A stretch of 64,000 nt of DNA from a virus. Below, one piece after another: positions 44,390 to 64,000 of the stretch. The notes below the pieces were generated by a model. It was not told where the DNA came from, made no database searches, and saw only the letters and a list, made by a program, of their open reading frames with translations. The position numbers and the translations under genes were made by a program. The number at the start of each line of letters is the position of its first letter. The stretch's first letter is position 1. Location of the stretch: the UHGV virus genome UHGV-1363143; one strand, given 5' to 3'.

Positions 44390-44641
44390 ATGATAACTTA
44401 TAATCATAAATATAGGGGACCATTTGAATATGAAAAATTTGCGCTTAATATTCTATCTTTTCACAATGCCATCAATTCTTTAGAAACTATTGAAATCCAA
44501 GGCACTAATGAAGAGATAGCTACATTAATGTCTATGAGTGATGACATTAATAATATTTTCAATTCCTTTACTGGAAAGAACGGCATATGTGAAAAAAGTT
44601 TCTTACTTGGACTAAAGGAAAGGAAGTGTATTAAATTATGA
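44390..44641 (+). CDS. hypothetical small protein
   Basis: 83 aa. Overlaps the next gene. Confidence 0.25.
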   Translation: MITYNHKYRGPFEYEKFALNILSFHNAINSLETIEIQGTNEEIATLMSMSDDINNIFNSFTGKNGICEKSFLLGLKERKCIKL

Positions 44642-45792
44642 TACCAAGAATGACAAGTCATGAATTAAACAACATACTTATAGAGGCAAATTCAAAGCTT
44701 TCAGGAGTAATTACTGATATAAAATATCTTAAGAATGATATGAGTAAAAAGCTAAAGATATTAAGATATGAATCGGAATATATGGAATATCAAATGGCAG
44801 ATTTGAAGAGAATACACAAGGAAACTTCTAAACCATCAGTTCCAGGACAAAACAACAAGGTATTTGTATTACCTGATCAATCTCTTTCAAACTCGTATGA
44901 ACAATACGGATGTACAATAACTCCTAAATTTAAAAGTGTTCCTGTTAATGTATTTAACATAATGACCACAGCTACAAGTGAAGCTTTCTATAGAGATATA
45001 GCAGAAGTATCTATTAATAATGTAGTTAAGGAAGAATATAAGAATATATTAAAACACGATAGCTTGAAGGAGAAAGAATTATTCTTTGAAGAAATTGATG
45101 GAGATAATCCAGCGATGAATATAAGCATTGTATTAGACAAAACAAAAGTTTTAGGTAATTCACTATTTAATATGATAGAGTTAGACATGTTCTTAAATGG
45201 TTCTTACACAATAGAATATATAAGACTTTTTACTGAAGATGTAGTAAACAATGATGAAATAACTAGTAAGTATGATGAATTTACTAACATTAAAGAAGCT
45301 GGAAAAATGAGATTAGTATTTAATAAAGAATACTCATTCAATAGAGTAGATATTAAAATAATTCCTAAATTCAATACTCAGGTTAATGGAGTGATGAAAT
45401 CACCTATAGGAATAAAACATATATACTTCTACAATGCGAAATTCTTATCCAATTCATATGCTATAGCTGAAATAGAATCAGAAGAATTTATTGATAAAAT
45501 AGATAATGAATTTACACTGATAAAACCAAATGAATCTATAGAATTAAATGCTGATTCAGAAAATATTCAATTCTATTTAAGTTATACAACTGATCCTTCA
45601 ACAGGCGAACCTATATTAAGCTCACCACAAGAAACAAGCAAGCCTGACAACACAAAAACAATAAGTGTTAACGTTAAGAAGATATATGCAAAGATACCAT
45701 TAAAAATACTTTTATCTTCTGATAAAAATTCTGATGTAAATAATCAATCTATAATAGGATTTGTATTTAATATATCATCAAAAATATTATAA
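44638..45792 (+). CDS. hypothetical protein (last gene of + strand late block)
   Basis: 384 aa. Followed by a bidirectional hairpin. Confidence 0.3.
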   Translation: MIPRMTSHELNNILIEANSKLSGVITDIKYLKNDMSKKLKILRYESEYMEYQMADLKRIHKETSKPSVPGQNNKVFVLPDQSLSNSYEQYGCTITPKFKSVPVNVFNIMTTATSEAFYRDIAEVSINNVVKEEYKNILKHDSLKEKELFFEEIDGDNPAMNISIVLDKTKVLGNSLFNMIELDMFLNGSYTIEYIRLFTEDVVNNDEITSKYDEFTNIKEAGKMRLVFNKEYSFNRVDIKIIPKFNTQVNGVMKSPIGIKHIYFYNAKFLSNSYAIAEIESEEFIDKIDNEFTLIKPNESIELNADSENIQFYLSYTTDPSTGEPILSSPQETSKPDNTKTISVNVKKIYAKIPLKILLSSDKNSDVNNQSIIGFVFNISSKIL

Positions 45793-45796
45793 AAAT

Positions 45797-45840
45797 AGCT
45801 CCCAGCACACAAGCTAGGGAGCATTTCTACTTTTCAAGTT
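45797..45840. terminator. bidirectional stem-loop between convergent genes
   Basis: GCTCCC-agcacacaagcta-GGGAGC, with T-rich sequence on the + side and A-rich sequence on the - side. Confidence 0.5.
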
Positions 45841-45994
45841 GATCTTTATATTTTTCAAGCAATAATTCCACTGCTTCATCAAGAAGTTTTGATCGTGGAA
45901 TTCTTGTATTTTCTTTTAAAATATTTAGCTTTTCGTATAAATCATTGTGAATAGCATCACCAAGTTTAGTTCTATTAACAAGTTTTCCGGCCAA
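45827..45994 (-). CDS. ribbon-helix-helix (CopG/Arc/MetJ-type) DNA-binding protein, 55 aa (not in ORF track)
   Basis: Minus-strand ORF with a TTG start 5 nt after GGAAGGTGA. The alternative GTG start at 46003 overlaps the RBS and is less likely. Product LAGKLVNRTKLGDAIHNDLYEKLNILKENTRIPRSKLLDEAVELLLEKYKDQLEK has a beta-strand, helix, helix layout with the conserved R/K-x-T pattern of RHH repressors. Confidence 0.55.
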   Translation of the reverse strand: MAGKLVNRTKLGDAIHNDLYEKLNILKENTRIPRSKLLDEAVELLLEKYKDQLEK

Positions 45995-46027
45995 TATAGT
46001 CACCTTCCTTTAACTTTTCATAATATA

Positions 46028-46056
46028 AATATAGCACACATTTTTATTACTTGCAA
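46028..46056 (-). promoter_or_regulatory. sigma-A-like promoter for RHH gene
   Basis: Minus strand: TTGCAA - 17 nt - TGcTATATT. Confidence 0.5.
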
Positions 46057-46070
46057 GTGCTATGAACTCC

Positions 46071-46099
46071 TTGCAACTACTAGGAGTTTGTGTTATAAT
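46071..46099 (+). promoter_or_regulatory. sigma-A-like promoter with embedded palindromic operator AACTaCTAGgAGTT (46075..46088)
   Basis: TTGCAA - 17 nt - TGtTATAAT (extended -10). The spacer carries a CTAG-centred inverted repeat. A 45-nt near-copy lies at 54413..54441. Confidence 0.6.
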
Positions 46100-46130
46100 T
46101 TATTTACACATTAAGAAAGGAAGAGAGTAC

Positions 46131-46748
46131 ATGGAATTAATAGATTTTTATTATTATAACTTAGGTGAAGAACCTAATAAAAGCGAAAAAACAATAACTG
46201 AAAATACATTCGGATTCTTAAAGGATAATAATTATACAGATAGCGATATTATGAGAATGCTAAAAGATTTTCCAGCTAAGATGGCATTAACACCGGATGA
46301 TCTTCCAGAATATCTTTGGGAAGGAAGTTTGACCAAGAGAAATGTTTTCTATTATCACAATGAACTTCACATAACATCCCCAGCTCCATACTGGGATTTT
46401 GAAAATGATAAGATTGTATCCAGTAGGTTTTTCTTAGAAATGAAAATAAAATATAGTATAGATGATTTAATTAAATATTTTTATAAAAGCTTTCCTATGG
46501 ATGGAAGCTTAGTAGATAGCAAAAAAGATAAAGGCTCTATGGAGTATCTCCTTAACAAATATAAGAACATTGATTTTATTGAGCCATTAGATTTTATATT
46601 ATATCTAATTGATGAAGCTGTTAATAATGAAACAGAGATTATTGAAATCATCGAATTAAAAAGATTTGAAAAGGCAACATTTGAATACTTAAAAATAAAA
46701 ACTTTAAATGCTGCTGTGGAGAAAATGAATAAAATAATTTGGAGGTAA
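46131..46748 (+). CDS. hypothetical protein, first gene of replication operon (start moved from 46062)
   Basis: The track ORF begins inside the promoter. The ATG at 46131 follows AAGGAAGAGAG. Confidence 0.4.
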   Translation: MELIDFYYYNLGEEPNKSEKTITENTFGFLKDNNYTDSDIMRMLKDFPAKMALTPDDLPEYLWEGSLTKRNVFYYHNELHITSPAPYWDFENDKIVSSRFFLEMKIKYSIDDLIKYFYKSFPMDGSLVDSKKDKGSMEYLLNKYKNIDFIEPLDFILYLIDEAVNNETEIIEIIELKRFEKATFEYLKIKTLNAAVEKMNKIIWR

Positions 46749-46752
46749 CACA

Positions 46753-47766
46753 ATGGACTGGTACATTGAATGCGGTGGAATATATGACATAAACAATCAA
46801 AAAATATTTGGTAGAAAGGTTTTTGTTAAGCCAGCAGAATTAGATACTACAATTAAAAAACGTTTCAAGAATATTGATGTTTACTCTACTAATTTCTTGT
46901 ACAATACTGAAGATCAGAATGAGAGCGATTTAATCGGACCTTTGTATATAGACTTGGATGGAGAAATACATGATGAAGAAAGCTACAATAAAGTAAAACA
47001 AGATACCTTAACTGCTATAAGTTATTTAACTACAAACCTTAAGGTACCTAAAGAATACATAAGAATATACTTTAGTGGAAATAAAGGATTTCACCTAATA
47101 GTTCCTTATACTGTATTTGGAATTACTCCTTGTAAGGATTTAAATGATAAATATAAGATGATAGCTTTAGACATAAAGAAATATTCATTAAATCAAACAA
47201 TAGATACAAGAATATATGACAAGAAGAGATTAATAAGACTTCCTCATTCAATAAATGGAAAGACAGGTCTTTATAAGGTTCCTCTTACTGAAGATGTCCT
47301 TAGAATTTCTACTTATGCAAGCATGAAGCTATATGCAAGTAAAGATAGAAAAGTTGAATATACAGAAACTAAGCTAGTGGAAGATGCTAAGAGAGCATTT
47401 ATAGAAGCTACAAAAGTTAAACCTAAGATAAAGAAAAACGTAAATACATCATACATTAATCCTAATTATGAGATACCACTATGTATAAAATATATTTATG
47501 CAAAAGGATCTGTGCAAGGAGCTAGAAATAACACCTTAATGATATTAGCTTCTTCGTTACTACAAAAAGGCATGGAACTAGAAGAATGTATTGATACACT
47601 AGTCGAATGGGATGAAGAGAAAAATGAGCCATCAATGGGTGAAAAGGAAGTAGAGACAACTGTTAGAAGTGCATATAGAAACCTAATAGATGGCAGAAGA
47701 TACGGCTGTGCATCAGTAATGGAATTAGGAATGTGCGTAGGAAAGCAATGCAAATTATACAAGTAA
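46753..47766 (+). CDS. DNA primase-polymerase, archaeo-eukaryotic primase (AEP) fold with PriCT-like C-terminal domain
   Basis: AEP catalytic motifs are present: LYIDLDGE (DxD), YFSGNKGFHLIV (sGxGxH) and DKKRLIRLPHSINGKTG. The C-terminal ..ARNNTLMILASSLLQKG.. looks like primase C-terminal (PriCT) domains. Confidence 0.65.
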   Translation: MDWYIECGGIYDINNQKIFGRKVFVKPAELDTTIKKRFKNIDVYSTNFLYNTEDQNESDLIGPLYIDLDGEIHDEESYNKVKQDTLTAISYLTTNLKVPKEYIRIYFSGNKGFHLIVPYTVFGITPCKDLNDKYKMIALDIKKYSLNQTIDTRIYDKKRLIRLPHSINGKTGLYKVPLTEDVLRISTYASMKLYASKDRKVEYTETKLVEDAKRAFIEATKVKPKIKKNVNTSYINPNYEIPLCIKYIYAKGSVQGARNNTLMILASSLLQKGMELEECIDTLVEWDEEKNEPSMGEKEVETTVRSAYRNLIDGRRYGCASVMELGMCVGKQCKLYK

Positions 47767-47781
47767 CGGAGGAGAATAATA

Positions 47782-48855
47782 ATGAACGACACTTTAGCAA
47801 AAGAATTAGAATTACATAACATAGATGAAATAACACCAATAAGTAATGAAGAAGAAAAAGAAATTTCAATGGAAGATTTCTTTGCAACATCCACTGCTGA
47901 CTTAGAAGCATTTGATACTAATGCTTGGAGCAAGGGAGATGGATTAACTTTACCAAACTATCCATATATAACTGAACAATTAGAAGGTTTAGATTCAGGC
48001 CTATATTTATTCGCTGGTAAATCTAATCATGGTAAATCAGCTGCAATGATGAACATAATGGAAGATGCATGTTCACATGAACCTAATAAGTTGTATGGAC
48101 TATATTACTCGCTAGATGATAGTAAGAATGAAATAATTCCAAGACTTATTGCTATGGATCAACGTATTCCAATAGGGGTTGCTGCTAAACCTCAAAGATA
48201 TCAAAATATGATAGATAACATGGAAGAAGGTTCTGCACAATATATTGAAATGCTTGAAAAAAGACAAGCAGGTTTAGATAAACTTAAAGCTAATGTAAAT
48301 AAATTAAAGATAGAGGATTCAAGTAAGATTAAAAATGCTGATGATATCCATGAACATATAAAGATGGTATTAACTTATCTTAGAGCAATAGATCCTGAAT
48401 ACAGAATATTAATTGCTATAGACTCTATCAATGACGTTAGATTAACATATACTCCTAAAGATAACGATGTATTAGCAGAAGTAGCTAGAGTAGTTAAAGG
48501 ATGGACTGTAGAATTTGATTGCCCTATATTTGCTAGTACACATATAAGAAAGCTAAATGGTAATAGAAGACCTACTATAGAGGACTTAAAGGATTCTACT
48601 GTATTGGTATATGAAGCTTCTGTAGTTTGGATAGTATTTAATGATGTATCTGAAAACAAACAAGCAGCCAAGATATTCCAAGTTAATCCTAATACTGATA
48701 TGAAACTTCCTATCTTAGAAATAGATTGGGCTAAGAATAAGAAATCTTCATACAAAGGAAGGAGCTTTTGCTACTTTAGACCAGAATACTCTAAAACTAT
48801 TGAGTGCGATGAAGAAGCTATTAAAAGATATTCTGCGTTAGTTTATGAGGCCTAA
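47782..48855 (+). CDS. RecA-fold replicative helicase-like ATPase (DnaB C-terminal-domain-like)
   Basis: Walker A LFAGKSNHGKSAAMMN. Walker B-like ILIAIDSIND. No N-terminal DnaB domain. Confidence 0.5.
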   Translation: MNDTLAKELELHNIDEITPISNEEEKEISMEDFFATSTADLEAFDTNAWSKGDGLTLPNYPYITEQLEGLDSGLYLFAGKSNHGKSAAMMNIMEDACSHEPNKLYGLYYSLDDSKNEIIPRLIAMDQRIPIGVAAKPQRYQNMIDNMEEGSAQYIEMLEKRQAGLDKLKANVNKLKIEDSSKIKNADDIHEHIKMVLTYLRAIDPEYRILIAIDSINDVRLTYTPKDNDVLAEVARVVKGWTVEFDCPIFASTHIRKLNGNRRPTIEDLKDSTVLVYEASVVWIVFNDVSENKQAAKIFQVNPNTDMKLPILEIDWAKNKKSSYKGRSFCYFRPEYSKTIECDEEAIKRYSALVYEA

Positions 48856-52016: not shown

Positions 52017-52058
52017 AGACTATTGCTAGTAATTTCTAGTAGTAGTCTTTTCTTTTTT
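52017..52058 (+). terminator. imperfect hairpin + T-tract
   Basis: GACTAttgCTAGtaatttCTAGtagTAGTC followed by TTTTCTTTTTT. Confidence 0.5.
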
Positions 52059-52143: not shown

Positions 52144-52695
52144 ATGGCTTACAAAAGAAGATTTACCCGTAAGAAGAAGACAACTGATGATAAGAAATCA
52201 GAAGTCAAAAAGATGGGTAAGATTAAACATAAGATTACTGAAGTAGACGGTATCAAGTTCCATAGCAAGATGGAATCAGATTACTATATATACTTAAAAG
52301 ATTTAAAAGCTCAAGGAATTGTAAAGAGTTTTAAACTACAACCTGAATTCATATTGCAAGACAAATTTATTGTTGTAGATGGAGTGGTATATGAAGGATC
52401 TCATGAAGACTTTAATAAGCTCAAGCGTAAGACCAAGGCTCCAACAGTACAAGCAATTAAATATATATCAGACTTCGAAGTAGAATATACTAATGGAGAA
52501 GTGAGGATAGTAGACACCAAAGGGCAAGAGACAGCAGACTTCAAGATTAAGAAAAAGATGTTTGCATATAAATACCCACATCTTACTTTAGATGTAATAA
52601 TACTAGATAAAGAAAAAGGCTGGATACCTTATGATGAATACCAAAAGGACAAGAGATTAAGAGCTAAAGAAAAGAAATTAAGAGGTGCATCATAA
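52144..52695 (+). CDS. DUF1064-like PD-(D/E)XK nuclease (putative Holliday-junction resolvase) with Lys-rich N-terminal extension
   Basis: ..EVDGIKFHSKMESDYYIYLKDLKAQGIVKSFKLQPEFIL....YISDFEVEYTNGEVRIVDTKG....KKKMFAYKYP.. This is the pattern of the small phage resolvase-like family (D...E.E...D.KG). Confidence 0.45.
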   Translation: MAYKRRFTRKKKTTDDKKSEVKKMGKIKHKITEVDGIKFHSKMESDYYIYLKDLKAQGIVKSFKLQPEFILQDKFIVVDGVVYEGSHEDFNKLKRKTKAPTVQAIKYISDFEVEYTNGEVRIVDTKGQETADFKIKKKMFAYKYPHLTLDVIILDKEKGWIPYDEYQKDKRLRAKEKKLRGAS

Positions 52696-53579
52696 TGGCA
52701 AACTACGACAATGAAAATCAAAGACTTGAAGAAAAACAAGAAGAATGGTCCGATATTGAAGAATATGTAATGATTTATAAAAAACAATTTGAACCTGGAG
52801 CTACTAGCAAAGATATAAGAGAAGCTAAAGACGCTGCTCAAGAACTGGTGGCAAGATTCAATCCTTTATTTAAAAAATATATAATGCTATTCAAAACTGG
52901 CCAAATAGATTTTAAAGATTCAGATGTAAAAACATTCATCAGTACATTTATAGATGATCCAAGATTACATAGAGCTTTAAAAAGACAGAAAAGTAGAACT
53001 GAATACAGGTCAGACATCTATAAGAAATTCGGTTTCGTTCTTGAAACCTACGGACAACTCCCAGAAGAAGATATACTTATCGACATGCAGATGTTATTAT
53101 TAATACTTGCTAAAAGATATAAGCAAGTTGGTAAAAACTTCTGTGCCTACGTACACAACTGCTTCAGATATGAAGTAAGTAGACATATCAAGAAATACAT
53201 CAAGAATCCATTAAACATTTCATACAAAAACACATCATACGAAGACACAAGCAATGGACAAGGTGATACTAATATCACTATGATTCATGAAGATCTATAC
53301 TACGAGCCACACAACGGAATTCCAAATATGACTTGGATAAATGGCGAAACATGTTCTGAAATTTTCTCTTTATTAAATCCACTTGAAAGAAAGATTATCG
53401 TCAAATACTATGCAGAAGAATACAATGACAAGCAAATAGCTGATGCATTAGGATTACATATAAATACTGTTAATCAAAAGCGTAGACAAGCTATTGCAAA
53501 ATTAGCTAAAGACCTTAACATAAACTTAGATTCTGTTAAGCGTAATAGACATAGTGGAAGACAATCAAATAGCTTTTAA
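52695..53579 (+). CDS. sigma-70-family RNA polymerase sigma factor (phage-encoded)
   Basis: Region 2-like ..LLILAKRYKQVGKNFCAYVHNCFRYEVSRHIKK.. and region 4 HTH ..LERKIIVKYYAEEYNDKQIADALGLHINTVNQKRRQAIAKLAK.. TAATG overlap with the upstream gene. Confidence 0.65.
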   Translation: MANYDNENQRLEEKQEEWSDIEEYVMIYKKQFEPGATSKDIREAKDAAQELVARFNPLFKKYIMLFKTGQIDFKDSDVKTFISTFIDDPRLHRALKRQKSRTEYRSDIYKKFGFVLETYGQLPEEDILIDMQMLLLILAKRYKQVGKNFCAYVHNCFRYEVSRHIKKYIKNPLNISYKNTSYEDTSNGQGDTNITMIHEDLYYEPHNGIPNMTWINGETCSEIFSLLNPLERKIIVKYYAEEYNDKQIADALGLHINTVNQKRRQAIAKLAKDLNINLDSVKRNRHSGRQSNSF

Positions 53580-53643
53580 CTTGTTTCATGCATAATATTA
53601 CGCCATTGTCATTTTGACAACATCGTTAGAAAGGATAGATATT

Positions 53644-53976
53644 ATGGAAAAATTCAATAAGATAAATATCTTAGGAACAGTATATGAGTTCAAAATTACA
53701 AAGAGGGAAAATGATCCTAATCTAGATAATAATGATGGATATTGTGATTCCTCTACTAAGACTATAGTTGTTGAGGATATGATTCCTGAAAAGTATTCTA
53801 AAGCGAACTTAGAAGAATATACAAAACAAGTAGTTAGACATGAAATGATTCATGCATTCTTATCAGAAAGCGGTCTTGCGGCTTGTAGCTGGGCAGATAA
53901 CGAGGAAATGGTAGATTACTTTGCTATACAACTACCTAAGATAGTTAAAGCAATGAAATTGATGGATGTATTATAG
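53644..53976 (+). CDS. small HExxH zinc-metallopeptidase-like protein (SprT/ImmA-like); start moved to ATG after AAAGGA
   Basis: VVRHEMIHAFLSESG contains HEMIH. 110 aa. Confidence 0.4.
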   Translation: MEKFNKINILGTVYEFKITKRENDPNLDNNDGYCDSSTKTIVVEDMIPEKYSKANLEEYTKQVVRHEMIHAFLSESGLAACSWADNEEMVDYFAIQLPKIVKAMKLMDVL

Positions 53977-53992
53977 AAAGGATTGATGATAG

Positions 53993-54259
53993 ATGAAAGA
54001 GTTAACTATTAATAATTTGGAAAATTGTTTTATTGCAGCCAAAAAAAATGGAGCAAGATTTGTAGGAGTTAAGATATCTATGAAGGGATTCCCAGTTCCA
54101 GAAGTAATCATAAATGAATATCCTAACTTCGATAAAAAGCTAGAGTATTATAAAGGGGCATATAATACAGACCTAACATTAAAAGCTACAGATGCTATCA
54201 AAATAATAGGATTTACTTATGGAGACAGCTATAAAGAAATCCAAAAGGACTTAATCTAA
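53993..54259 (+). CDS. hypothetical protein
   Basis: 88 aa. Confidence 0.3.
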   Translation: MKELTINNLENCFIAAKKNGARFVGVKISMKGFPVPEVIINEYPNFDKKLEYYKGAYNTDLTLKATDAIKIIGFTYGDSYKEIQKDLI

Positions 54260-54340
54260 AATGAAAGAATTAATTAAAAGATTTATAGGCTTTTGGATGC
54301 TCCCTCCAAAAACAATGAAAGATCTTATATACGTATAATA

Positions 54341-54371
54341 AAAACAGCTTATTAGGCTGTTTTATTTTTTT
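54341..54371 (+). terminator. rho-independent terminator
   Basis: AAAACAGC-ttattag-GCTGTTTT followed by ATTTTTTT. Confidence 0.8.
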
Positions 54372-54412
54372 ACATTCCTTTTAATCTTTTTTCAAAAACT
54401 CCCAGTAACTAC

Positions 54413-54441
54413 TTGCAACTCCTAGCAGTTTGTAGTAAAAT
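54413..54441 (+). promoter_or_regulatory. sigma-A-like promoter with palindromic operator AACTcCTAGcAGTT (54417..54430)
   Basis: TTGCAA - 17 nt - TGtaGTAAAAT. About 45 nt near-identical to 46069..46108. The palindrome is the near reverse complement of the copy at 46075. Confidence 0.55.
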
Positions 54442-54499: not shown

Positions 54500-56230
54500 A
54501 TGATTTGGAAGCAAAATAGAGAAATTACTTCTGAATATATAGAAGAACTTGCTAGAGAATTTGAAACAAATGAATTACTAGTAAGAATACTACTTAACAG
54601 AAAAAACGATAAAGAGTTTGCAAGAATAGCTCTTAGGGATTTATACGAAGCTATCATTCCTGCTGAAAGACTAGTAAATGGTCAAGCAGTAGCAGATGTA
54701 ATAGCAAGACATATTAGAAATGGTAGTAAAATTTACATTCACGCTGACTATGATGCAGACGGCTTAAATAGCGGATTCATTATGTATGAAACAATTAAAG
54801 AAGTTATTGAAGTCGCTCAAAGTAATGCTTACGTAGAAGTTTACTTCCCTGAAAGAATTAATGGATATGGATTATCGTTTGATTTTGCTAACAATCTAAT
54901 ACAAACAAAAGGTGATGAAGATATATTAGTAATTACTGTAGACAATGGAATTGCTCAAGTAGAGCAAGTGGAATTACTTATGAATAATGGTATTGAAGTA
55001 GTTGTCACTGACCATCACATGAGTAAAGAAGATGGTATTCCTAATTGCTTAATCTGTGATCCACATAATGAATATATAGAACAAGACGATACATTTAAAC
55101 ATTTATGTGGTGCTGGTGTAGCATTTAAAGTTTGTGAATTACTTCAAAAGAACTTTGGATATCACGATATGTATAGATTTGTTACTAATGTAGCAATAGC
55201 TACTATAACAGATGTTATGCCATTAAATGCAGAGAATATGGCCTTTGTAAGATATGGATTAGATATTATTAATTCAGAATACTGTCCTGTAGGAATTAAA
55301 GCTATGAAAGAGTTCTTAGGAATAACAGTTATGAACTCAGCAAACATAGCTTGGGAAATAGGTCCAAGACTTAATGCCTGTGGCCGTATGAATAATACTA
55401 AGATAGGTGGAGCCTTATTAATGGAAACTGACTATCATATGGCAGTAGACCTTGTAAATGAAATTGAATTAATAAATGAATCTAGAAAAGAGAAAACCAA
55501 AGAAGCTGAAGAACAATTATCATCAATGAACTTTGACAATGACTATGTATGCATTATTAAACTTGAAGAGTTGCCAGAAGGTATAGTCGGAATAATTGCT
55601 GGAAGAGCTGCTGAAAGATTTGGTAAACCATCAATAGTTGTAACTGAATCAGAAGATGGAATATGTAAAGGATCTGCTAGAAGCATTTCAGGATTAGATT
55701 TACATTATCTATTCAACATAGAAGTTTCTAAAGGTAATATAGAAAACTTCGGTGGACATAGTGAAGCAGCTGGTATCTCATTTAGAGAAGATAAGCTAGA
55801 AGAATTAAAAGCTAGTTTAAACGAATCAATACAGAATCTAGCGTTATCACAACAACATGACTTAAGTGTTGTAGAAGAAGAACCAGTATTAATGATTGAT
55901 GAATGTATTGAAATAAAACATTTAAATCAGAATACTTTCAACTTAATAAATGAACTACCTTATGATAAAGATACATTTGCTAAGCCAGTTTTTGCATTAG
56001 TTGACTGTGAGGTTAAAGACTTTGTACCAACTAAGACTAAACCCGAAAACTTATGGCTAACAGTTAAGCAAGGTAAACAGACTGTTAAGTTATGGTGCCA
56101 AGGAATGACAGAAGTTTATAAATCAAAAGGTTGTCCTAAAGTAATACATTTAGCTGGCTACATTGAAAAGAACTTTATGTCAGGCAGACCATATATTCTA
56201 AAAGTAATAGATATAGCTGATGCTTCATAG
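54500..56230 (+). CDS. recJ: single-stranded-DNA-specific exonuclease RecJ (DHH/DHHA1)
   Basis: YIHADYDADGLNS (DHH motif I-II), VVVTDHHMS (DHH), NFGGHSEAAG (DHHA1 GGH). Confidence 0.8.
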   Translation: MIWKQNREITSEYIEELAREFETNELLVRILLNRKNDKEFARIALRDLYEAIIPAERLVNGQAVADVIARHIRNGSKIYIHADYDADGLNSGFIMYETIKEVIEVAQSNAYVEVYFPERINGYGLSFDFANNLIQTKGDEDILVITVDNGIAQVEQVELLMNNGIEVVVTDHHMSKEDGIPNCLICDPHNEYIEQDDTFKHLCGAGVAFKVCELLQKNFGYHDMYRFVTNVAIATITDVMPLNAENMAFVRYGLDIINSEYCPVGIKAMKEFLGITVMNSANIAWEIGPRLNACGRMNNTKIGGALLMETDYHMAVDLVNEIELINESRKEKTKEAEEQLSSMNFDNDYVCIIKLEELPEGIVGIIAGRAAERFGKPSIVVTESEDGICKGSARSISGLDLHYLFNIEVSKGNIENFGGHSEAAGISFREDKLEELKASLNESIQNLALSQQHDLSVVEEEPVLMIDECIEIKHLNQNTFNLINELPYDKDTFAKPVFALVDCEVKDFVPTKTKPENLWLTVKQGKQTVKLWCQGMTEVYKSKGCPKVIHLAGYIEKNFMSGRPYILKVIDIADAS

Positions 56231-57128: not shown

Positions 57129-60100
57129 ATGAAAAACTTTACTCATATACACGTACATGATTATTTTAGCTTCTTAGATGGATACGGCTCACCTGCAAGT
57201 AAAGCAAAGAGAGCTAAAGAACTAGGAATGACAGCAATAGCTACAACTAACCATAATCACTTAGGAGGTTGTGTAGAATTCCAAAAAGCTTGCTTTGATG
57301 AAGGAATTAAGCCAATACTTGGAGTAGAACTTTATTACACAGAAGATACTTCTATATTAAGTAAAGATTCAAAAGTAAGGTATCAATTAGCTTTAGATGC
57401 AGCCACTGAGGCTGGAATAGTAATACCACCAAAGGCTAAGAAGAAAGATATAGCAGAATTAATAGCTCCATATGAATATAATACAAAGCAACACCACATT
57501 ATATTCTTAGCAAAGAATCAAACTGGCTGGAAAAACTTAATTAAGCTACAATCAGAAGCTGCTAAGGTATGCACTTATAATGGAAGATTCCTATGTGATG
57601 ATGATATGATACTTAAATATAGAGAAGGTCTAATAATGACTACTGCTTGCTTAGGTAACATAGTAAATCAATATTTTATTAAAGGCAAAGTAAAAGAAGC
57701 ATATAATCAACTAGATAAATGGCATACTATATTCGGTGAAGATTTTTACATTGAAATACAACCTTTAAATCAAGGCGATCAAGCATTATGCAACTATTAT
57801 TTAATTGAATATGCAAAAACTCATAATATTAAGATTATAGCAACTAATGATTCGCACTATACTTATGAAACCGATATAGATGACCATGATACATTATTAT
57901 GTATAGGGTTAGGTAAATTAAAAGAAGACAAGGATAGGATGAAATACGCTCCTGAATTTTGGTTAAGAAGTTATGAAGAAATGCAAACTGCATTTACAGC
58001 ACAATATTTAAACAGTCCTCTTTTAAGAGAAAAGATGTCTTTGGAAGAATACTTAGCTGTTACAGAACTTGCACTAGATAATACTAACTTAATAGCTGAT
58101 AAAGTAGAAGCAAATATAAAGCTTGGTTCGGACAAGCCAATACTTCCAAAACTTGATATACCAAACGGATTTACATCAGAACAATACTTAACTCTATTAT
58201 CATACAAAGGTTTATTTAAATACTTATCAAAACATAAAGAATTAAACATACAAGAATACTTAAATAGATTAGCCTTTGAATTAAATGTAATCAACACTAA
58301 AGGATATGCTGACTACATGCTTATAGTTAAAGACATAGTTGACTGGTGCCAGGAAAATGATATTCCAGTAGGTCCAGGTAGAGGAAGTGCAAGTGGTTCA
58401 TTATGCCTATTCGTTAATGGAATTACTAAGTGTATAGATCCTATAAAATATGGATTACTATTTTCAAGATTCTTAACTATGGATAGAACAGCTTTACCTG
58501 ATATTGACACTGACTTCTCATATTTAAACAGACAAGAAGTTATTCAATATTTAAGAGATAAATATGGAGAAGACTGTGTATCGTTCATAGGAACTTATAC
58601 TGAATTAGGTGTAAAGAATGGACTTAAAGATGTTGGTAGAGTTCTTAATATAGATTTTACTACAATGAATGCATTATCTAAAAAGATAGATGAATGGACA
58701 GGAGAAGCTCCTTCAATTAAATTCAAAGATTTAGATAAGCTTGCTAATGGTAATGCTATGGATAAAGAAATCTATGAAGAATTTAAAGAAACTGAAAACC
58801 AATACTCAGAATTATTTAGATTAGCTAGAGCATTTGAAGGCACACCAAGAAACCAAGGTGTTCATGCTTCAGGAATATTGGTTACTCCAATGCCAATAAA
58901 TGATATGTTTCCTACAAGAGTTGATAAAGAAGGAAACTTAGTTACATTATACACTGGACCACAAGCTGAAATGGTTGGTGGAGTTAAGTTGGATATACTA
59001 GGACTTAAAACTCTTGATGTATTAGATTTAACAATTAAAGCAGTTAGCCCTGAAGCAACAGTATATCAATTATACGATATTGTAGATGGTCATTTAGATG
59101 ATGAGGAAATGTTCTCAGCATTATGCAGAAAAGAAACTGAAGGTATCTTCCAATTAGAATCAGCTTTATTTAAAGGAATGATTTCAGACATGCTACCAGA
59201 TAAGTTGGATGATATAACTCTTATTACTTCATTCGGTAGACCTGGACCATTGAGTGCTGGACTTCATACTGAATTTGCGAATAGAAAGAAAGGCGAAAGT
59301 GAAGCAAGAGAACCACTTCCTAATACATGGGATATAGTAGAGGATAGCTTAGGTGTATTAGCTTACCAAGAACATACAATGAGAATAGCTCAAAGAGTAG
59401 CTGGATTTGATGATAACCAAGCGGACTCATTCCTTAGAAAGGCTCAAGCAAAGAAAAAGAGAGCATTACTAGACCTATGTAATCAATGGTTTGTATATGG
59501 AAAGATTAATGAAGAGCCACCAACTGGATATGATTATGAAAACAAGAACCAACCTTATTATGATCCAACAGCTAAATATGGCTCAGAAATTAAGGGTGGA
59601 ATAGCAAATGGATATAACGAACAAGATCTTATAGATTATAACCATATGATAGATGGATTCTGCTCATACCTATTTAATAAGAGTCATGCATGTGCATATT
59701 CATTTATAAGTGTTTGTACAATGTACTTAAAGACTTATTATAGACCTCAATTCATGGCTGCATTATTAAGCTTACAATCTAAGCCAGAAAAGATAGACTT
59801 ATATTGCAAGGTTGCACAAGGATATGGAATAGAAATGGCAGCACCAAATATAAACCTATCTAATGAACACTTTACTGCAATAGATAATAAAATCCTATAT
59901 GGATTAGGCTCAATAAAGGGAGTAGGGGCTACAGCAATTCCAACACTAATAGCATGCAGACCTTATACAGATGTTGCGGATGCATATGAGAAAGCTGGTA
60001 AAAAAGCATTCAATAAAAAGATTGGTGAATCTTTAATAAAAGCTGGAGCATTTGAGTTCCAAGATGAAAACAGAAACAAAGTTCTTAATATCTTCCAAGA

Positions 60101-60560
60101 TGTTAGAAAAGCCAAAAAGGAAGAAAGATTCGATGAAGAAGCTTATAATGAAGCACTTTGTATTGAATATGAGAAGAATACTCTTGGTAGTGCAATAACT
60201 TACAGACCATATTGGGATACAGTACAAGCTGGAGAAGTAGTTAATGTAACTATGACTCTTAAATCAGTAAGAGAGAAGATAGATAAGAACGGTAATATGA
60301 TGGCGTTCATAAATGTTGACATAGAAAACACAGACTTAAAAGGAGTTGTGTTTGCAAGCACTTACTGTAAGAATGTAGATGTTTTTGATATGAACTTAAA
60401 TACAGAGGTCTATGCTACAATTAAGAAAGATGATAAAGGCGGCTTTATAGTAAATAGAATATTAAAGACTCCACCTAAAACAAAAATAAATACTCCAAAA
60501 GAAGTTACTGATAATATGATTGGGACATTCGATAAGTTATTATCAAGAGTAGCAAGCTAG
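57129..60560 (+). CDS. dnaE: DNA polymerase III alpha subunit (DnaE-type, PHP domain)
   Basis: N-terminal PHP motif HIHVHDYFSFLDGYGSP. Catalytic LPDIDTDF. 1143 aa, length typical of DnaE. Confidence 0.85.
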   Translation: MKNFTHIHVHDYFSFLDGYGSPASKAKRAKELGMTAIATTNHNHLGGCVEFQKACFDEGIKPILGVELYYTEDTSILSKDSKVRYQLALDAATEAGIVIPPKAKKKDIAELIAPYEYNTKQHHIIFLAKNQTGWKNLIKLQSEAAKVCTYNGRFLCDDDMILKYREGLIMTTACLGNIVNQYFIKGKVKEAYNQLDKWHTIFGEDFYIEIQPLNQGDQALCNYYLIEYAKTHNIKIIATNDSHYTYETDIDDHDTLLCIGLGKLKEDKDRMKYAPEFWLRSYEEMQTAFTAQYLNSPLLREKMSLEEYLAVTELALDNTNLIADKVEANIKLGSDKPILPKLDIPNGFTSEQYLTLLSYKGLFKYLSKHKELNIQEYLNRLAFELNVINTKGYADYMLIVKDIVDWCQENDIPVGPGRGSASGSLCLFVNGITKCIDPIKYGLLFSRFLTMDRTALPDIDTDFSYLNRQEVIQYLRDKYGEDCVSFIGTYTELGVKNGLKDVGRVLNIDFTTMNALSKKIDEWTGEAPSIKFKDLDKLANGNAMDKEIYEEFKETENQYSELFRLARAFEGTPRNQGVHASGILVTPMPINDMFPTRVDKEGNLVTLYTGPQAEMVGGVKLDILGLKTLDVLDLTIKAVSPEATVYQLYDIVDGHLDDEEMFSALCRKETEGIFQLESALFKGMISDMLPDKLDDITLITSFGRPGPLSAGLHTEFANRKKGESEAREPLPNTWDIVEDSLGVLAYQEHTMRIAQRVAGFDDNQADSFLRKAQAKKKRALLDLCNQWFVYGKINEEPPTGYDYENKNQPYYDPTAKYGSEIKGGIANGYNEQDLIDYNHMIDGFCSYLFNKSHACAYSFISVCTMYLKTYYRPQFMAALLSLQSKPEKIDLYCKVAQGYGIEMAAPNINLSNEHFTAIDNKILYGLGSIKGVGATAIPTLIACRPYTDVADAYEKAGKKAFNKKIGESLIKAGAFEFQDENRNKVLNIFQDVRKAKKEERFDEEAYNEALCIEYEKNTLGSAITYRPYWDTVQAGEVVNVTMTLKSVREKIDKNGNMMAFINVDIENTDLKGVVFASTYCKNVDVFDMNLNTEVYATIKKDDKGGFIVNRILKTPPKTKINTPKEVTDNMIGTFDKLLSRVAS

Positions 60561-60565
60561 ACATT

Positions 60566-60598
60566 AAGACTAGGTTTTTCTTCCTAGTCTTTTGTTAT
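60566..60598 (+). terminator. rho-independent terminator
   Basis: AAGACTAGG-tttttcttc-CTAGTCTT followed by TTGTT. Confidence 0.7.
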
Positions 60599-60645: not shown

Positions 60646-62022
60646 GTGATAATTATGGCTTTAATAAAAGGAAAGCAAATAGAATCCATAATCGCTTCTC
60701 AAGTTATAGAAACAGATGATAAAAAATTTGTATCTCAAGCTGAGAAAGATGAATGGAACAATAATAGTGGTAATGGATTGACAGATGAAATACTTGCCAA
60801 AATTAACAAAGCTGACGAACTAAAACATAGTCATGATAATAAAGAAATTATTGATAAATTCTCTTTAGTAGATGGTGTTCTTTTATTTGATGGAAAAGAA
60901 ATCGAAGGATCTGCTGGAGAACCAGGACAAGATGGTAAATCAGCTTATGACATCTGGCTTGAAGAAGGTAACACTGGAACTGTAGAAAAATTTCTACAAT
61001 CTCTTATAGGACCACAAGGTAATACAGGGAATGACGGTAATAGTATAGAGCTTAGAAAAACTGCCACTAGTATCGAATGGAGACAAGTTCCACATAAAAT
61101 TATAACTGCAGATTTTAATGCAAGTAAAACTATGATGACAGCAAAATCAAGTGATATCCTAGAAAAAGTAGTTATAAATTCTTTTCCAAGAAAAGCTAAA
61201 TATGCTCAAATAAAAACAATAACTGTTTACGGAGCAGATAAGGATGGAAAAGATCTAATAAACTCAAATCCTTCTATATCTACAGCTCCTCCTGGAGTGA
61301 CGTTCCCTGAGTTTGGTGGATTTGATCCTGTTACATCAGAAAAAATAGATTTAACTATCAATCCTGAAATAATAGGTAATGCAAGTATAAAAACTATAAT
61401 GGAAACTTATTTGCCAGACTTGCAAAAGTATAATCCAGAAGTAACTCATGTAAATAAGTTTTGTTTATGGGTTCATTTTTTAGATGAAAACAATGAAGAT
61501 ATTAAATTTGTTACAGCTTACTGTCATATAACAGATAGTAGAACTGGCACAAAAACAATAGATGTAGATAGTGAATGGAAAGAATTAATACCATTAGCAG
61601 CTATCACTGGTAAAGATGGAGAACAAGGTCCTCAAGGGCCACAAGGAGAGATTCCTAATATAGATCACTTAGCAACTAAAGAATATGTAACTGAAGCTAT
61701 TAATAAAATAAATGGAAACAATCATAGCCATACAAACAAAGAAGATGTTTTAGATAAATTATCTGTTGTTGATGGAAAACTTAATTTTGATAATATTCCA
61801 ATCCAATCAGAGATAGCTTCAATAAATACATCAGATATTCAAGAATACGCAGCTTCATTAATAAACGGTGAAGAACAGCTATTAATAACTAGGGAAGATG
61901 GTTCTATATATTTTACTAACGGAAAAGGTTCATATATACAATGCGGTGTTTCAAAAGAAAAGTACGACAAACTCGAACAAAGATTAATAGAATTAGAGAA
62001 TATTATTAAGGCAGCCAACTAA
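60646..62022 (+). CDS. tail-fibre-like protein displaced into replication region
   Basis: N-terminal ..KKFVSQAEKDEW.. parallels ..KQFVSAAEKAEY.. of the 21188 fibre. Short collagen-like GEPGQDGKSAYDIWLEEGNTG and [14 protein letters not shown]. Two HSH repeats (KHSHDNKEIIDKFSLVDG / NHSHTNKEDVLDKLSVVDG). Confidence 0.5.
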   Translation: MIIMALIKGKQIESIIASQVIETDDKKFVSQAEKDEWNNNSGNGLTDEILAKINKADELKHSHDNKEIIDKFSLVDGVLLFDGKEIEGSAGEPGQDGKSAYDIWLEEGNTGTVEKFLQSLIGPQGNTGNDGNSIELRKTATSIEWRQVPHKIITADFNASKTMMTAKSSDILEKVVINSFPRKAKYAQIKTITVYGADKDGKDLINSNPSISTAPPGVTFPEFGGFDPVTSEKIDLTINPEIIGNASIKTIMETYLPDLQKYNPEVTHVNKFCLWVHFLDENNEDIKFVTAYCHITDSRTGTKTIDVDSEWKELIPLAAITGKDGEQGPQGPQGEIPNIDHLATKEYVTEAINKINGNNHSHTNKEDVLDKLSVVDGKLNFDNIPIQSEIASINTSDIQEYAASLINGEEQLLITREDGSIYFTNGKGSYIQCGVSKEKYDKLEQRLIELENIIKAAN

Positions 62023-62035
62023 AGGCTGCTTTTTC
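62011..62035 (+). terminator. rho-independent terminator (stop codon in loop)
   Basis: GCAGCC-aactaaa-GGCTGC followed by TTTTTC. Confidence 0.7.
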
Positions 62036-62105
62036 ATTAGTTTGTTTTTGAACTTTTGCATAATATAGTTATATATGAAAAAAAATAAAAAACGGAGGAT
62101 ATAAT

Positions 62106-63242
62106 ATGTTGAAGCGTAGAGATTTTAAAGTATACCGCTTCAAGACAATGAACAAAACTATTATATACGTAGGCTACACAGGAAAAGCTATTATAGAAAG
62201 ATTCCTTGAACATGCTAAAGATAAATACTGGATAAACGAAGTTGTTGAAGTGGAAGAGTGCACTATAGAAAATGAGGCACAAGCAAGGTTAGTAGAGATG
62301 TACTACATAAACTCTCTTAAACCTATATTTAATGCAAAGGATAAGTTTGCAGGAGCTATCCTAAGTAAATTAAGACCTCAGGAGAAGAAATTTACTCATA
62401 GTTTTTATGTATTAAATGGGACTGCTACAACTTGTGTAGCTAGAACTAATGACGATTATACATTAGTAAATTTTATTCAAGTTGTTGATACTCATATAGG
62501 TATGTATTACGATTCATACTTAAACCTATATTATTCAGCAAATGATATATGTAAAGCTCTAGACATCAAATCAAAAGATTTAATTAATTTGGCTAAAAAT
62601 AATGATATGTTTATCAAGACTTCATACGATTACGTGCATAAAGGAAAAGATAAAACATCAGATTTATATTTATGTACTTATGAAGCAATAGATAGTATTT
62701 TGGCATTATCAAATAGTGAATTTAAAGCTCAATGTAGAAATAGATTATCCATCTCAAGAAGATGTGCTGATATAGCTGTTATTTATAAAAATCCAGAAGA
62801 AGCTCTTTCTGTTAAGACAACTTATGATGAGCAACTAAGATTCTTATCTGGTAATAGATATGAAGATTCAAACATAAAAAGAAGATTAGTATTTAAGGCA
62901 CTTAACTGTGATAGAGGAATGGAAGTTGTAGTACATTCATATAACCAACAAATGAATACCTATGATATAAAATTCCCAGCAGAAATATTGGCCTGCGATA
63001 TTTTCTCTATGGTAGAAGATTTAAGTAACGAATACAATCTTTCTTATAAAGACGTATTCTCAGAATTCAATGAATTTCTGATTAAATATAAAAACCTTAA
63101 CTTTTGGCAAATCAACAATTCTACAAAAAAGAAGTTTAAAGACTTCTCATTACAATCTCATTTTATAGTAGCCTTAAATAAAGATCTACTATATAATCAT
63201 TTCTTAGAATTCTATAATAAAAATATTGAGAATGCGGCTTAA
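62106..63242 (+). CDS. GIY-YIG family homing endonuclease
   Basis: N-terminal IIYVGYTGKAIIERFLEHAK ... YYINSLKPIFN gives the GIY-YIG Y...Y..R..EH...N signature. A long C-terminal region could bind DNA. Flanked by strong terminators on both sides. Confidence 0.6.
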   Translation: MLKRRDFKVYRFKTMNKTIIYVGYTGKAIIERFLEHAKDKYWINEVVEVEECTIENEAQARLVEMYYINSLKPIFNAKDKFAGAILSKLRPQEKKFTHSFYVLNGTATTCVARTNDDYTLVNFIQVVDTHIGMYYDSYLNLYYSANDICKALDIKSKDLINLAKNNDMFIKTSYDYVHKGKDKTSDLYLCTYEAIDSILALSNSEFKAQCRNRLSISRRCADIAVIYKNPEEALSVKTTYDEQLRFLSGNRYEDSNIKRRLVFKALNCDRGMEVVVHSYNQQMNTYDIKFPAEILACDIFSMVEDLSNEYNLSYKDVFSEFNEFLIKYKNLNFWQINNSTKKKFKDFSLQSHFIVALNKDLLYNHFLEFYNKNIENAA

Positions 63243-63266
63243 ATGGCACTCGCACGCTACTCAGTT

Positions 63267-63305
63267 AAAAAAAAGTGGACCAGGTGAAATCCTGGTCCTT
63301 TTTGT
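63267..63305. terminator. bidirectional rho-independent terminator
   Basis: AAAAAAAA-GTGGACCAGG-tgaaat-CCTGGTCC-TTTTT. Confidence 0.8.
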
Positions 63306-63325
63306 GTACTACAAATACTATTAAT

Positions 63326-63502
63326 TTATTTTATAGTTATTTCATTATTATTAATAGTTAATTCAATTGCAGTTAAACAGTTATCACAATCATGGATAAC
63401 CTTTTTATTCATTTCTCTAATAGTAATAGTATCGCCTTCATAATACATAAGATTACATTCTGGGCATTGAAAAGTGTTTTTTATTATCTTTGTCTCACTC
63501 AT
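63326..63502 (-). CDS. 58-aa zinc-ribbon protein (not in ORF track)
   Basis: AAGGAG RBS. Product MSETKIIKNTFQCPECNLMYYEGDTITIREMNKKVIHDCDNCLTAIELTINNNEITIK with CPEC...CDNC. Confidence 0.45.
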   Translation of the reverse strand: MSETKIIKNTFQCPECNLMYYEGDTITIREMNKKVIHDCDNCLTAIELTINNNEITIK

Positions 63503-63562
63503 GCGTTGTCTCCTTTATACTCTTTTAAATTAAGTACTGTAGCACACATTAGTGAGATGCAT

Positions 63563-63835
63563 TTAAACTCTGCTTAAAAAATCCATAGCACTTTCTAAAC
63601 ATTCTATATCATAACGTTTATTCTTATCTTCTATAGTCTCTGGAAAACCAGTATAGTCTTCTACACTATCTGAAATTGATCTAATTAATTGTTGTAAGTA
63701 ATATATAGTTACACTCTTGTGTTTTGAATATAAAATAGGTTTATTTTTTTCAGCTTTATAAGCACCCCTATATTCTCCAACTTTAAATGCAAGTATTGTT
63801 ATAAATAATAAAAAAATAATATCAAATATCATCAA
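63563..63835 (-). CDS. small membrane protein (N-terminal TM helix)
   Basis: MMIFDIIFLLFITILAFKV... GGAG RBS. Confidence 0.4.
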   Translation of the reverse strand: MMIFDIIFLLFITILAFKVGEYRGAYKAEKNKPILYSKHKSVTIYYLQQLIRSISDSVEDYTGFPETIEDKNKRYDIECLESAMDFLSRV

Positions 63836-63844
63836 TTTGACTCC

Positions 63845-64000
63845 TTAATATCTGTTGCGAGATGATTCGCAATACTTATTTAATTCTTTTTTAAAGCTAT
63901 CATAATTTTCATTAGATCTCTTTTCAATATCCTTTTCCATAAGAAATATCTTATTTGCTAGAAACTCAGCAATCATATGATTCACTTCTCTTTTAGCATG
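63845..64000 (-). CDS. hypothetical protein, 5'-partial at window end
   Basis: Open minus-strand frame running into the window edge. It ends ..KYCESSRNRY just upstream of the RBS of the 63835 gene. Confidence 0.3.
   Translation of the reverse strand, partial: HAKREVNHMIAEFLANKIFLMEKDIEKRSNENYDSFKKELNKYCESSRNRY

Follow-up and report, generated by a model that had tools for sequence, protein, structure and literature searches.

The window analysed here, a 64-kb stretch of viral DNA from a ∼240-kb genome, has a low GC content (about 31%) and carries nearly all its genes on the + strand. The proteins it encodes are 96–100% identical to those of a 241-kb IMG/VR contig. Searches among GenBank phages, performed with the locus described below and with the 24 kb around it, returned no DNA matches; no cultured relative of the phage has been sequenced, and identity to the nearest DnaE is just 35%. 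The search for Rfam families across 44–56 kb gave no match. The features on which the analysis rests are as follows:

44638..45792: 384-aa gene, convergent with the RHH gene
45801..45818, − strand: terminator-like hairpin directly 3′ of the RHH gene (6-bp stem with four GC pairs, then a T run), lying between that gene and the 384-aa gene
45827..45994, − strand: predicted 55-aa RHH_3 Arc-like repressor gene, TTG start, monocistronic
46028..46056, − strand: leftward promoter of the RHH gene (−35 TTGCAA at 46056..46051, 17-nt spacer, TGc-TATATT, −10 at 46033..46028)
46045..46088, + strand: candidate operator array O1 (TATTACTTGC, AAGTGCTATG, AACTCCTTGC, AACTACTAGG + AGTT)
46071..46099, + strand: rightward promoter of the 205-aa/primase/helicase operon (TTGCAA-17-TGtTATAAT)
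46131..46748, + strand: 205-aa protein of unknown function, first gene of the operon
46753..47766, + strand: AEP primase with PriCT_1
47782..48855, + strand: DnaB-like helicase
52017..52048: terminator, the probable end of the primase/helicase transcription unit
52144..54290: operator-free unit with DUF1064 resolvase-like, sigma-like and SprT-like genes, between the terminators at 52017–52048 and 54341–54363
52695..53579: sigma-like protein with a Sigma70 region 4, conserved in all relatives
54341..54363, + strand: terminator-like hairpin 5′ of the recJ promoter (10-bp stem, then ATTTTTTT)
54397..54430, + strand: candidate operator array O2 (AACTCCCAGT, AACTACTTGC, AACTCCTAGC + AGTT)
54413..54441, + strand: recJ-dnaE promoter (TTGCAA-17-TAAAAT)
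54500..56230, + strand: RecJ, first gene of the second operon, followed by two small ORFs
57129..60560, + strand: DnaE-type polymerase; the operon ends at a terminator at 60566..60591

An earlier, sequence-only reading of this DNA had placed a 55-aa ribbon-helix-helix (RHH) gene with a TTG start on the minus strand, and this was borne out. Translation of 45827–45994 on that strand yields LAGKLVNRTKLGDAIHNDLYEKLNILKENTRIPRSKLLDEAVELLLEKYKDQLEK followed by a stop codon, and the TTG lies 8 nt 3′ of an AGGAAGG sequence. The mechanically generated ORF list contained a 58-aa version starting at an upstream GTG that falls inside the Shine-Dalgarno sequence. The TTG start is judged to be the right one because the homologues from a diverged clade (72% identity) begin with an ATG that aligns with it. 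The same reading had called the gene unannotated, which proved incorrect, since 11 public contigs already carry calls for exactly this 55-aa protein, labelled PF12651. Nor does the TTG codon seem to be why the gene was missed from the ORF track, its small size (under 60 aa) being the probable cause. No other RHH_3-like ORF was found in the 64-kb window.

The 55-aa protein matched Pfam family RHH_3 (PF12651) along the entire profile (positions 1–44 of 44; 60.2 bits against a cutoff of 21.6; E-value 1.8e-16), while no other Pfam family, including Arc (PF03869) and RHH_1, was matched at E-values up to 10. It also matched PHROG 3180, ‘Arc-like repressor’, and it is from this label only that the name ‘Arc-like’ derives. 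An AlphaFold2 model (pLDDT 83) showed the expected RHH-like arrangement, with an extended N-terminus followed by helices at residues 17–30 and 34–48; the β-ribbon is absent, and the strand unpaired, because a single chain was modelled. The leading Foldseek matches in the PDB were all RHH proteins, with TM-scores of 0.6–0.76. CopA_SO, CopG, ORF56, ParD, Arc and Reg576 were the nearest solved structures; CopA_SO, ParD and VapB stood among the top matches, and AmrZ was also found among the fold matches. These results support the assignment of the 55-aa protein to the ribbon-helix-helix proteins. Its N-terminal residues include N7-R8-T9, with a leucine at position 5. The segment A2–I15 is almost invariant across the clades of relatives and includes an invariant LVNRTK.

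The back-to-back promoters proposed earlier, TTGCAA-17-TGcTATATT and TTGCAA-17-TGtTATAAT, are present at 46056..46028 (−) and 46071..46099 (+), respectively, and the downstream genes were confirmed to encode an AEP primase with PriCT_1, a DnaB-like helicase, RecJ and DnaE. The window contains a single exact match to TTGCAA-N17-TATAAT, the rightward promoter. A new transcript starts at the recJ promoter, since the terminator at 54341..54363 ends the preceding unit. A scan for σ70-like hexamer pairs found 99 in the window against 114 expected. Such generic pairs thus show no enrichment in DNA so rich in AT, and hexamers are no proof by themselves; the generic promoter scan being uninformative, the evidential weight falls on the element that the two operon promoters share.

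This element is rare within the window. Two exact copies of the 21-nt promoter core TTGCAACTNCTAGNAGTTTGT are present in the 64 kb, at 46071 and 54413, where 0.04 copies would be expected; allowing up to three mismatches retrieved the same two sites only, and none of 100 shuffles reached two. The primase and recJ promoters align over about 44 nt with about 84% identity, in agreement with the near-copy of some 45 nt reported earlier in front of recJ-dnaE. Each spacer contains a palindrome, AACTACTAGGAGTT at 46075..46088 and AACTCCTAGCAGTT at 54417..54430. The search for further copies suggested by the sequence-only reading, run in the 64-kb window, found exact matches to AACTNCTAGNAGTT at 46075 and 54417 only. 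The palindrome at the second site had been described as inverted. Its flanks, however, point the same way at both sites, and the differences are confined to two unconstrained N positions.

Closer comparison revealed both palindromes to be part of longer arrays of 10-bp-phased units of the form AACTNCTWGS, four at the divergent promoters (O1) and three at recJ (O2). The last unit of an array, together with AGNAGTT, forms the 14-bp palindrome (AACTNC-TA-GNAGTT); in O1, the last unit plus AGGAGTT gives that at 46075..46088. Junctions 1|2 and 3|4 of O1 (TTGC|AA) constitute the two −35 boxes, so that O1 spans the −35 regions of both divergent promoters, with its last unit filling the rightward spacer. 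The units of O2 cover the −35 box and spacer of the recJ-dnaE promoter. The palindrome proposed at first was confirmed, but as part of a longer candidate operator, an array of three to four units that in O1 takes in the −35 box of the RHH gene itself. In a position-weight scan of the 64-kb window for three phased units, O2 was the highest-scoring three-unit site, and no third site in the window exceeded the shuffled maximum. No phased-unit operator was found at the unit at 52144..54290. A perfect 7-bp inverted repeat (ATAGCAC/GTGCTAT, at 46031–37 and 46057–63) also lies between the divergent genes; it is not kept in relatives and was treated as chance.

Homologues of the 55-aa protein were identified in metagenomic contigs at 93, 91, 82, 72 and 58% identity, all of them encoded divergently from the 205-aa/primase/helicase operon; the small ORF and its layout are thus conserved in related phages. 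The geometry of the leftward promoter is kept (TTGCAA-17-TGgTATATT in L002; TTGCTA-17-TGaTATACT in L007 and L059), as are the TG extension and geometry of the rightward promoter in all the relatives. The arrays are kept too. In the 72% clade (L007), the primase array reads AACTTCTAGC AAGTCCTAAA AACTTCTTGC AACTTCTAGG AGT and the recJ array AACTTCTAGC AACTACTTGA AACTGCTAGA AGTT, while the primase array of the 58% clade reads AATTCCTAGC AACAGCTACT TACTCCTTGC AATTGCTAGG AGTT. Position five is free to vary in every unit, and the positions next to it are fixed. In the flanking genes, just 36–38% of the 4-fold degenerate sites agree when the window is compared with the L007 clade, indicating that synonymous sites are saturated, yet the O1 core (units 3–4 plus AGT) is identical at 21 of 23 positions over the same comparison. 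These observations support the view that the shared element behaves as a protein-binding site under selection.

Conservation of the palindrome is less uniform. It is kept at the arrays across clades, as the earlier reading would have it, but was lost at recJ in the L002-type phages, a close lineage in which it has degraded to AACTCCTTGCAATT and the three direct units persist. This decay suggests that the direct repeats are at least as important as the CTAG-centred symmetry, and it leaves the exact recognition unit uncertain. In the 241-kb relative the recJ site has AATTACT in unit 2, and a strict-pattern scan of IMG/VR matched only its primase site. One additional exact motif match in L002 (position 3961) corresponds to the stem of a terminator hairpin, equivalent to that at 52017..52048 in the window, and is not an operator.

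The conserved block coincides with promoter elements, and it could accordingly be asked whether the shared 45 nt are anything other than a duplicated, strongly conserved promoter, with UP-like region, −35, spacer and extended −10, read by the host σA or by the phage sigma-like protein, with the RHH protein acting on a target elsewhere. The sigma-like protein, with its Sigma70 region 4 and its conservation in all relatives, could read part of the block, and with two copies an operator and a promoter are inseparable from this genome alone. We nevertheless consider this explanation improbable. Spacer positions that σA does not read are kept at saturated divergence, in a 10-bp pattern with free N positions. 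Moreover, the same spacer palindrome is found beside RHH_3 genes that have different cargo in Bacillus phages and chromosomes, as shown by comparing RHH_3 gene, site and cargo at each locus, and related Arc proteins bind exactly such sites.

The loci behind this comparison were found in several kinds of element. Among the IMG/VR matches listed for a 14-base pattern, which were mostly due to chance, L021, L028 and L039 contain AACTACTTGC AACTACTTGC AACTACTTGT AGTT TGTGATATAAT, a 35-nt promoter-operator that is identical at 31 of its 35 positions to the O1 operator-promoter of the window; it lies between a 53-aa RHH_3 gene (51% identical) and a TnpB/OrfB_IS605 gene. The cultured Bacillus phage vB_BceS_LY4, whose RHH protein is 55% identical, has TTGC|AACTACATGTAGTT-N5-TATAAT before its ‘transposase’, and phage IEBH carries an RHH/TnpB pair as in LY4 with the half-sites spread apart. 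A profile scan of genomic contigs, performed with a nine-sequence alignment, identified 40 Bacillota loci encoding RHH relatives, 18 of which have TnpB as a neighbour. A site differing by at most one mismatch from AACTNCNNGNAGTT was present just upstream of seven of the 40 genomic homologues, against eight of 1258 control windows. The layout also recurs, with different cargo, in Bacillus chromosomes (L180, L185 and L195). Judged from these sites, the RHH_3 protein and the operator architecture travel together whatever their cargo, which is the strongest in silico argument that the 55-aa protein would bind the element.

In other members, different palindromes occupy the same position: Clostridium phage BG3P, for example, has AAGTCATATGACTT there, and Paenibacillus and Cohnella have AATTGAATTCAATT. 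The β-strand residues seem to covary with the half-sites among LY4, IEBH, BG3P and others (BG3P, for example, has NRIQ with AAGTCA); the data are suggestive but too thin. A further locus, P0011, encodes an RHH protein 60% identical to that of the window; its setting, among large PKD-domain and transglutaminase genes, is unrelated and contributes nothing to the comparison.

The closest experimentally studied counterparts are the ‘Arc’ RHH proteins of IS605-type elements. ChIP-seq and RFP reporters showed these to bind the divergent arc/tnpB promoter over the −35 region and to repress it; mutation of Asn5, Asn7 and Thr9, or of single operator bases, relieves repression, and most Arc-like proteins adjoin diverse other genes (Moon, Zedaveinyte, Wiegand & Sternberg, bioRxiv 2026, 10.64898/2026.09.24.754181). 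The likenesses to the window are several. Both genes encode small RHH proteins (about 50–60 aa) and are divergent from the gene that is controlled or, in the window, would be controlled; the IS605 motifs lie over the −35 of the cargo and over the arc gene's own promoter, just as the units of the window, by their sequence anatomy, span both −35 boxes; and RHH_3 homologues 51–55% identical to the window protein adjoin TnpB with a near-identical promoter-operator. The predicted contacts of the IS605 proteins are Asn/Asn/Thr in the β-strand; the window protein has N7-R8-T9, with leucine at position 5. The shared family, the TnpB context and the N-R-T motif suggest that the window protein is homologous to the tested Arcs. 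The species of the latter, P. xylanilyticum and C. botulinum, were not among the 40 Bacillota loci of the genome scan. There are also differences. The cargo in the window is a phage replication operon and not tnpB/tnpA; tblastn detected no TnpB in the 64-kb window, the neighbours being the 205-aa/primase/helicase genes and the 384-aa gene. Further, the window has a second, remote candidate operator at another operon, and three to four phased units where IS605 elements have two opposed motifs.

Taken together, the 55-aa protein is probably an autoregulated Arc-like repressor that would occlude the −35 and spacer regions of the primase and recJ-dnaE promoters, as well as its own promoter. Its dimers would insert the N-terminal β-ribbon (LVNRTK) into successive major grooves of the 10-bp-phased array, occupying successive 10-bp units cooperatively. 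At O1, the four units (46045..46088) would place dimers on both −35 boxes and on the rightward spacer. Such coverage, with cooperative binding, is proposed to shut off the primase/helicase operon and to autoregulate the repressor gene. At O2, the three units (54397..54430) would place dimers on the −35 and spacer of the recJ-dnaE promoter. Transcription of the replication genes would then probably be throttled or switched off as the repressor accumulates. Binding, its stoichiometry, repression rather than activation, and timing are what we infer here; what was observed is the fold family, the layout and conservation of the sites, how unique they are statistically, and the presence of RHH_3 homologues alongside them. 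The idea of a two-operator switch is supported in part, by the conserved shared element and the divergent promoters, but does not extend to the whole replication module, the unit at 52144..54290 lacking an operator.

Several well-studied RHH repressors offer parallels for this proposal. CopG (RepA) of pMV158 is a 45-aa RHH repressor of replication-gene transcription that recognizes a 13-bp pseudo-symmetric element at the −35, several dimers binding cooperatively on one face of the DNA. It is among the best structural matches of the window protein (2cpg, 1ea4). However, copG is co-transcribed with and lies upstream of rep, belongs to RHH_1, has one operator and is plasmid-borne, whereas the window gene is divergent, monocistronic, of the RHH_3 family and phage-borne. 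Arc and Mnt of Salmonella phage P22 (immI) are phage RHH repressors that bind, as a dimer of dimers, a roughly 21-bp operator lying over or between two opposed promoters. The window protein has no match to Pfam Arc (PF03869) and only weak structural similarity to P22 Arc (probability 0.13–0.2), and the P22 proteins serve antirepressor control in a temperate phage, while the sites in the window are at replication genes. Reg576 of the Bacillus plasmid p576 is an autoregulating RHH repressor of several σA extended −10 promoters; its sites consist of phased heptamers immediately 5′ of the −35, plus a copy in the spacer that runs the other way, and are bound by one dimer per heptamer with high cooperativity (PMC6294495). 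The Reg576 heptamer is TTATCCC with a 9-bp phase, compared with AACTNCT and a 10-bp phase in the window. Reg576 differs from the window system in having a third helix and plasmid establishment cargo; its sequence similarity to the window protein is undetectable, and it ranked 32nd in the Foldseek search.

Some units lie 5′ of the −35, near −45 and −55 in the case of the recJ promoter. Their position might instead reflect an RHH protein that does bind here, its main role being to activate or time transcription, for example through recruitment of RNA polymerase or the sigma-like factor. Some RHH proteins, such as AmrZ, which appeared among the fold matches, are known as dual regulators. This alternative is likewise improbable, since the units with the best conservation overlap the −35 and occupy the spacer, a classic geometry of occlusion; the promoters already have a near-consensus −35, 17-nt spacing and an extended −10; and the experimentally tested relatives repress.

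An interpretation of the 10-bp direct repeats as origin iterons, bound not by the RHH protein but by an initiator such as the 205-aa protein, is very doubtful. The phased repeats do adjoin an AT-rich stretch at the start of the replication module, and the operon opens with a gene of no known function. However, the two arrays are in register with each other when aligned on the −35 and −10 hexamers, the same element lies 5′ of tnpB and other non-replication genes elsewhere, and an inflection of the GC skew is absent near 46 kb and 54 kb. Finally, many RHH proteins are antitoxins, and CopA_SO, ParD and VapB rank among the top structural matches, but that the 55-aa protein should be the antitoxin of a toxin-antitoxin pair can hardly be credited and is taken as excluded, because its gene is monocistronic with a terminator directly 3′ and has convergent or divergent neighbours on the other strand, an arrangement repeated in all the relatives (no same-strand neighbour that might be a toxin partner was found in the window or in 12 related loci).

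A repressor acting at both operons would make a switch that is well supported but ordinary, its kind having already been shown experimentally in related mobile elements, and general concepts are left unchanged: for phages and plasmids, small RHH repressors with palindromic or phased operators are textbook material. No paper on this system was found in the literature on RHH_3 (PF12651) and on ribbon-helix-helix proteins of jumbo phages. What the analysis offers is a concrete, testable circuit in an uncultured lineage of ∼240-kb, low-GC phages, in which one 55-aa protein would act through two operators on three promoters, and which would extend the newly described Arc/IS605 repressor-promoter module to the control of phage replication.

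How such a circuit arose can be addressed only tentatively. It is possible, although we would not favour it over other histories, that a cassette composed of an RHH_3 gene and a TTGC|AACTNC-WW-GNAGTT site was captured by a lineage of ∼240-kb phages and rewired to replication, its promoter-operator being copied to a second operon and the arrays expanded to three or four phased units that nucleate a CopG-like filament across the two back-to-back promoters. The tnpB-silencing cassettes of IS605-type elements and of Cecivirus Bacillus phages are of the same kind as the cassette whose capture is proposed. If this were so, it would document the exaptation (or donation) of a transposon-type regulatory module as a timer of replication genes in a jumbo phage. 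The operator type is in any case common to phages, transposons and Bacillus chromosomes, and the 35-nt promoter-operator with its 55-aa repressor might provide a compact switch for synthetic biology in Gram-positive bacteria.

The two divergent promoters that lie between the gene for the 55-aa ribbon-helix-helix (RHH) protein and the primase/helicase operon (46027..46057 and 46070..46100) were found to be mutual inverted copies; they extend over 31 nt, are 74% complementary and include TGTGTGCTATA and TGTGTTATAA. This suggests that the bidirectional promoter region arose by inverted duplication of a single promoter. The operator-promoter is invariably followed, immediately 3′, by the gene that heads the primase operon:
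46131..46748, plus strand, gene for a 205-aa protein, conserved at 57-91% identity
Searches of Pfam and PHROG with this protein gave zero matches; an initiator or a loader is a candidate role for it.

The operator ahead of recJ was compared with its counterpart in related phages whose RHH protein is 93% identical (L002 type):
L002:1560-1640, minus strand, recJ operator, counterpart of window 54397..54441
It reads AACTCCAAGT AACTCCTTGC AACTCCTTGC AATT. Relative to the window, the CTAG palindrome has gone and one unit is doubled; there are two overlapping TTGCAA boxes spaced 10 bp apart. Closely 5′ of the recJ promoter in the window lies a phage gene for a sigma-like protein, which all relatives retain:
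52695..53579, plus strand, sigma-like protein of 294 aa, Sigma70 region 4 (30 bits, over the Pfam cutoff)
This phage protein may recognise part of the conserved promoter element.

A further near-match to the operator motif was present in the arms (ACTATTGCTAG...CTAGTAGTAGT) of a hairpin:
52017..52048, plus strand, terminator with a 13-bp stem, ending the primase-operon transcript
Its L002 counterpart matches AACTNCTAGNAGT exactly. It was rejected as an operator, the likeness being judged a chance one.

Both Cecivirus Bacillus phages and IMG/VR contigs 39-178 kb long contain RHH_3 ‘Arc-like’ genes divergent from TnpB/OrfB_IS605 genes:
L055 (Bacillus phage vB_BceS_LY4) 1773..3153, RHH_3/TnpB pair
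L167 (phage IEBH) gp72/gp73, RHH_3/TnpB pair
L028:13530-13800, RHH_3/TnpB pair
L039:7857-9043, RHH_3/TnpB pair
These pairs share with the window the promoter-operator TTGC|AACTAC-WW-GTAGTT, which suggests that the RHH_3 cassette would hold phage-borne TnpB genes silent. The pairs fit the new ‘Arc represses IS605’ preprint (bioRxiv 10.64898/2026.09.24.754181).

The layout was unchanged at the loci of more distant RHH_3 homologues (L169, Clostridium phage vB_CpeS_BG3P, 2393..2500; L186; L188), where a perfect 14-bp palindrome in the spacer begins with the final AA of the -35 TTGCAA. The half-sites differ (AAGTCA-TA-TGACTT; AATTGA-AT-TCAATT), and these palindromes offer a natural series for studying RHH specificity change.

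Skew, steadily positive over the preceding 62 kb of the window, falls to about zero in 62000..64000 (GC skew -0.014, AT skew 0.024). Minus-strand ORFs emerge there (e.g. 63563..63835), together with a further feature:
63277..63298, bidirectional terminator
This stretch is possibly the boundary of a module or a strand switch.
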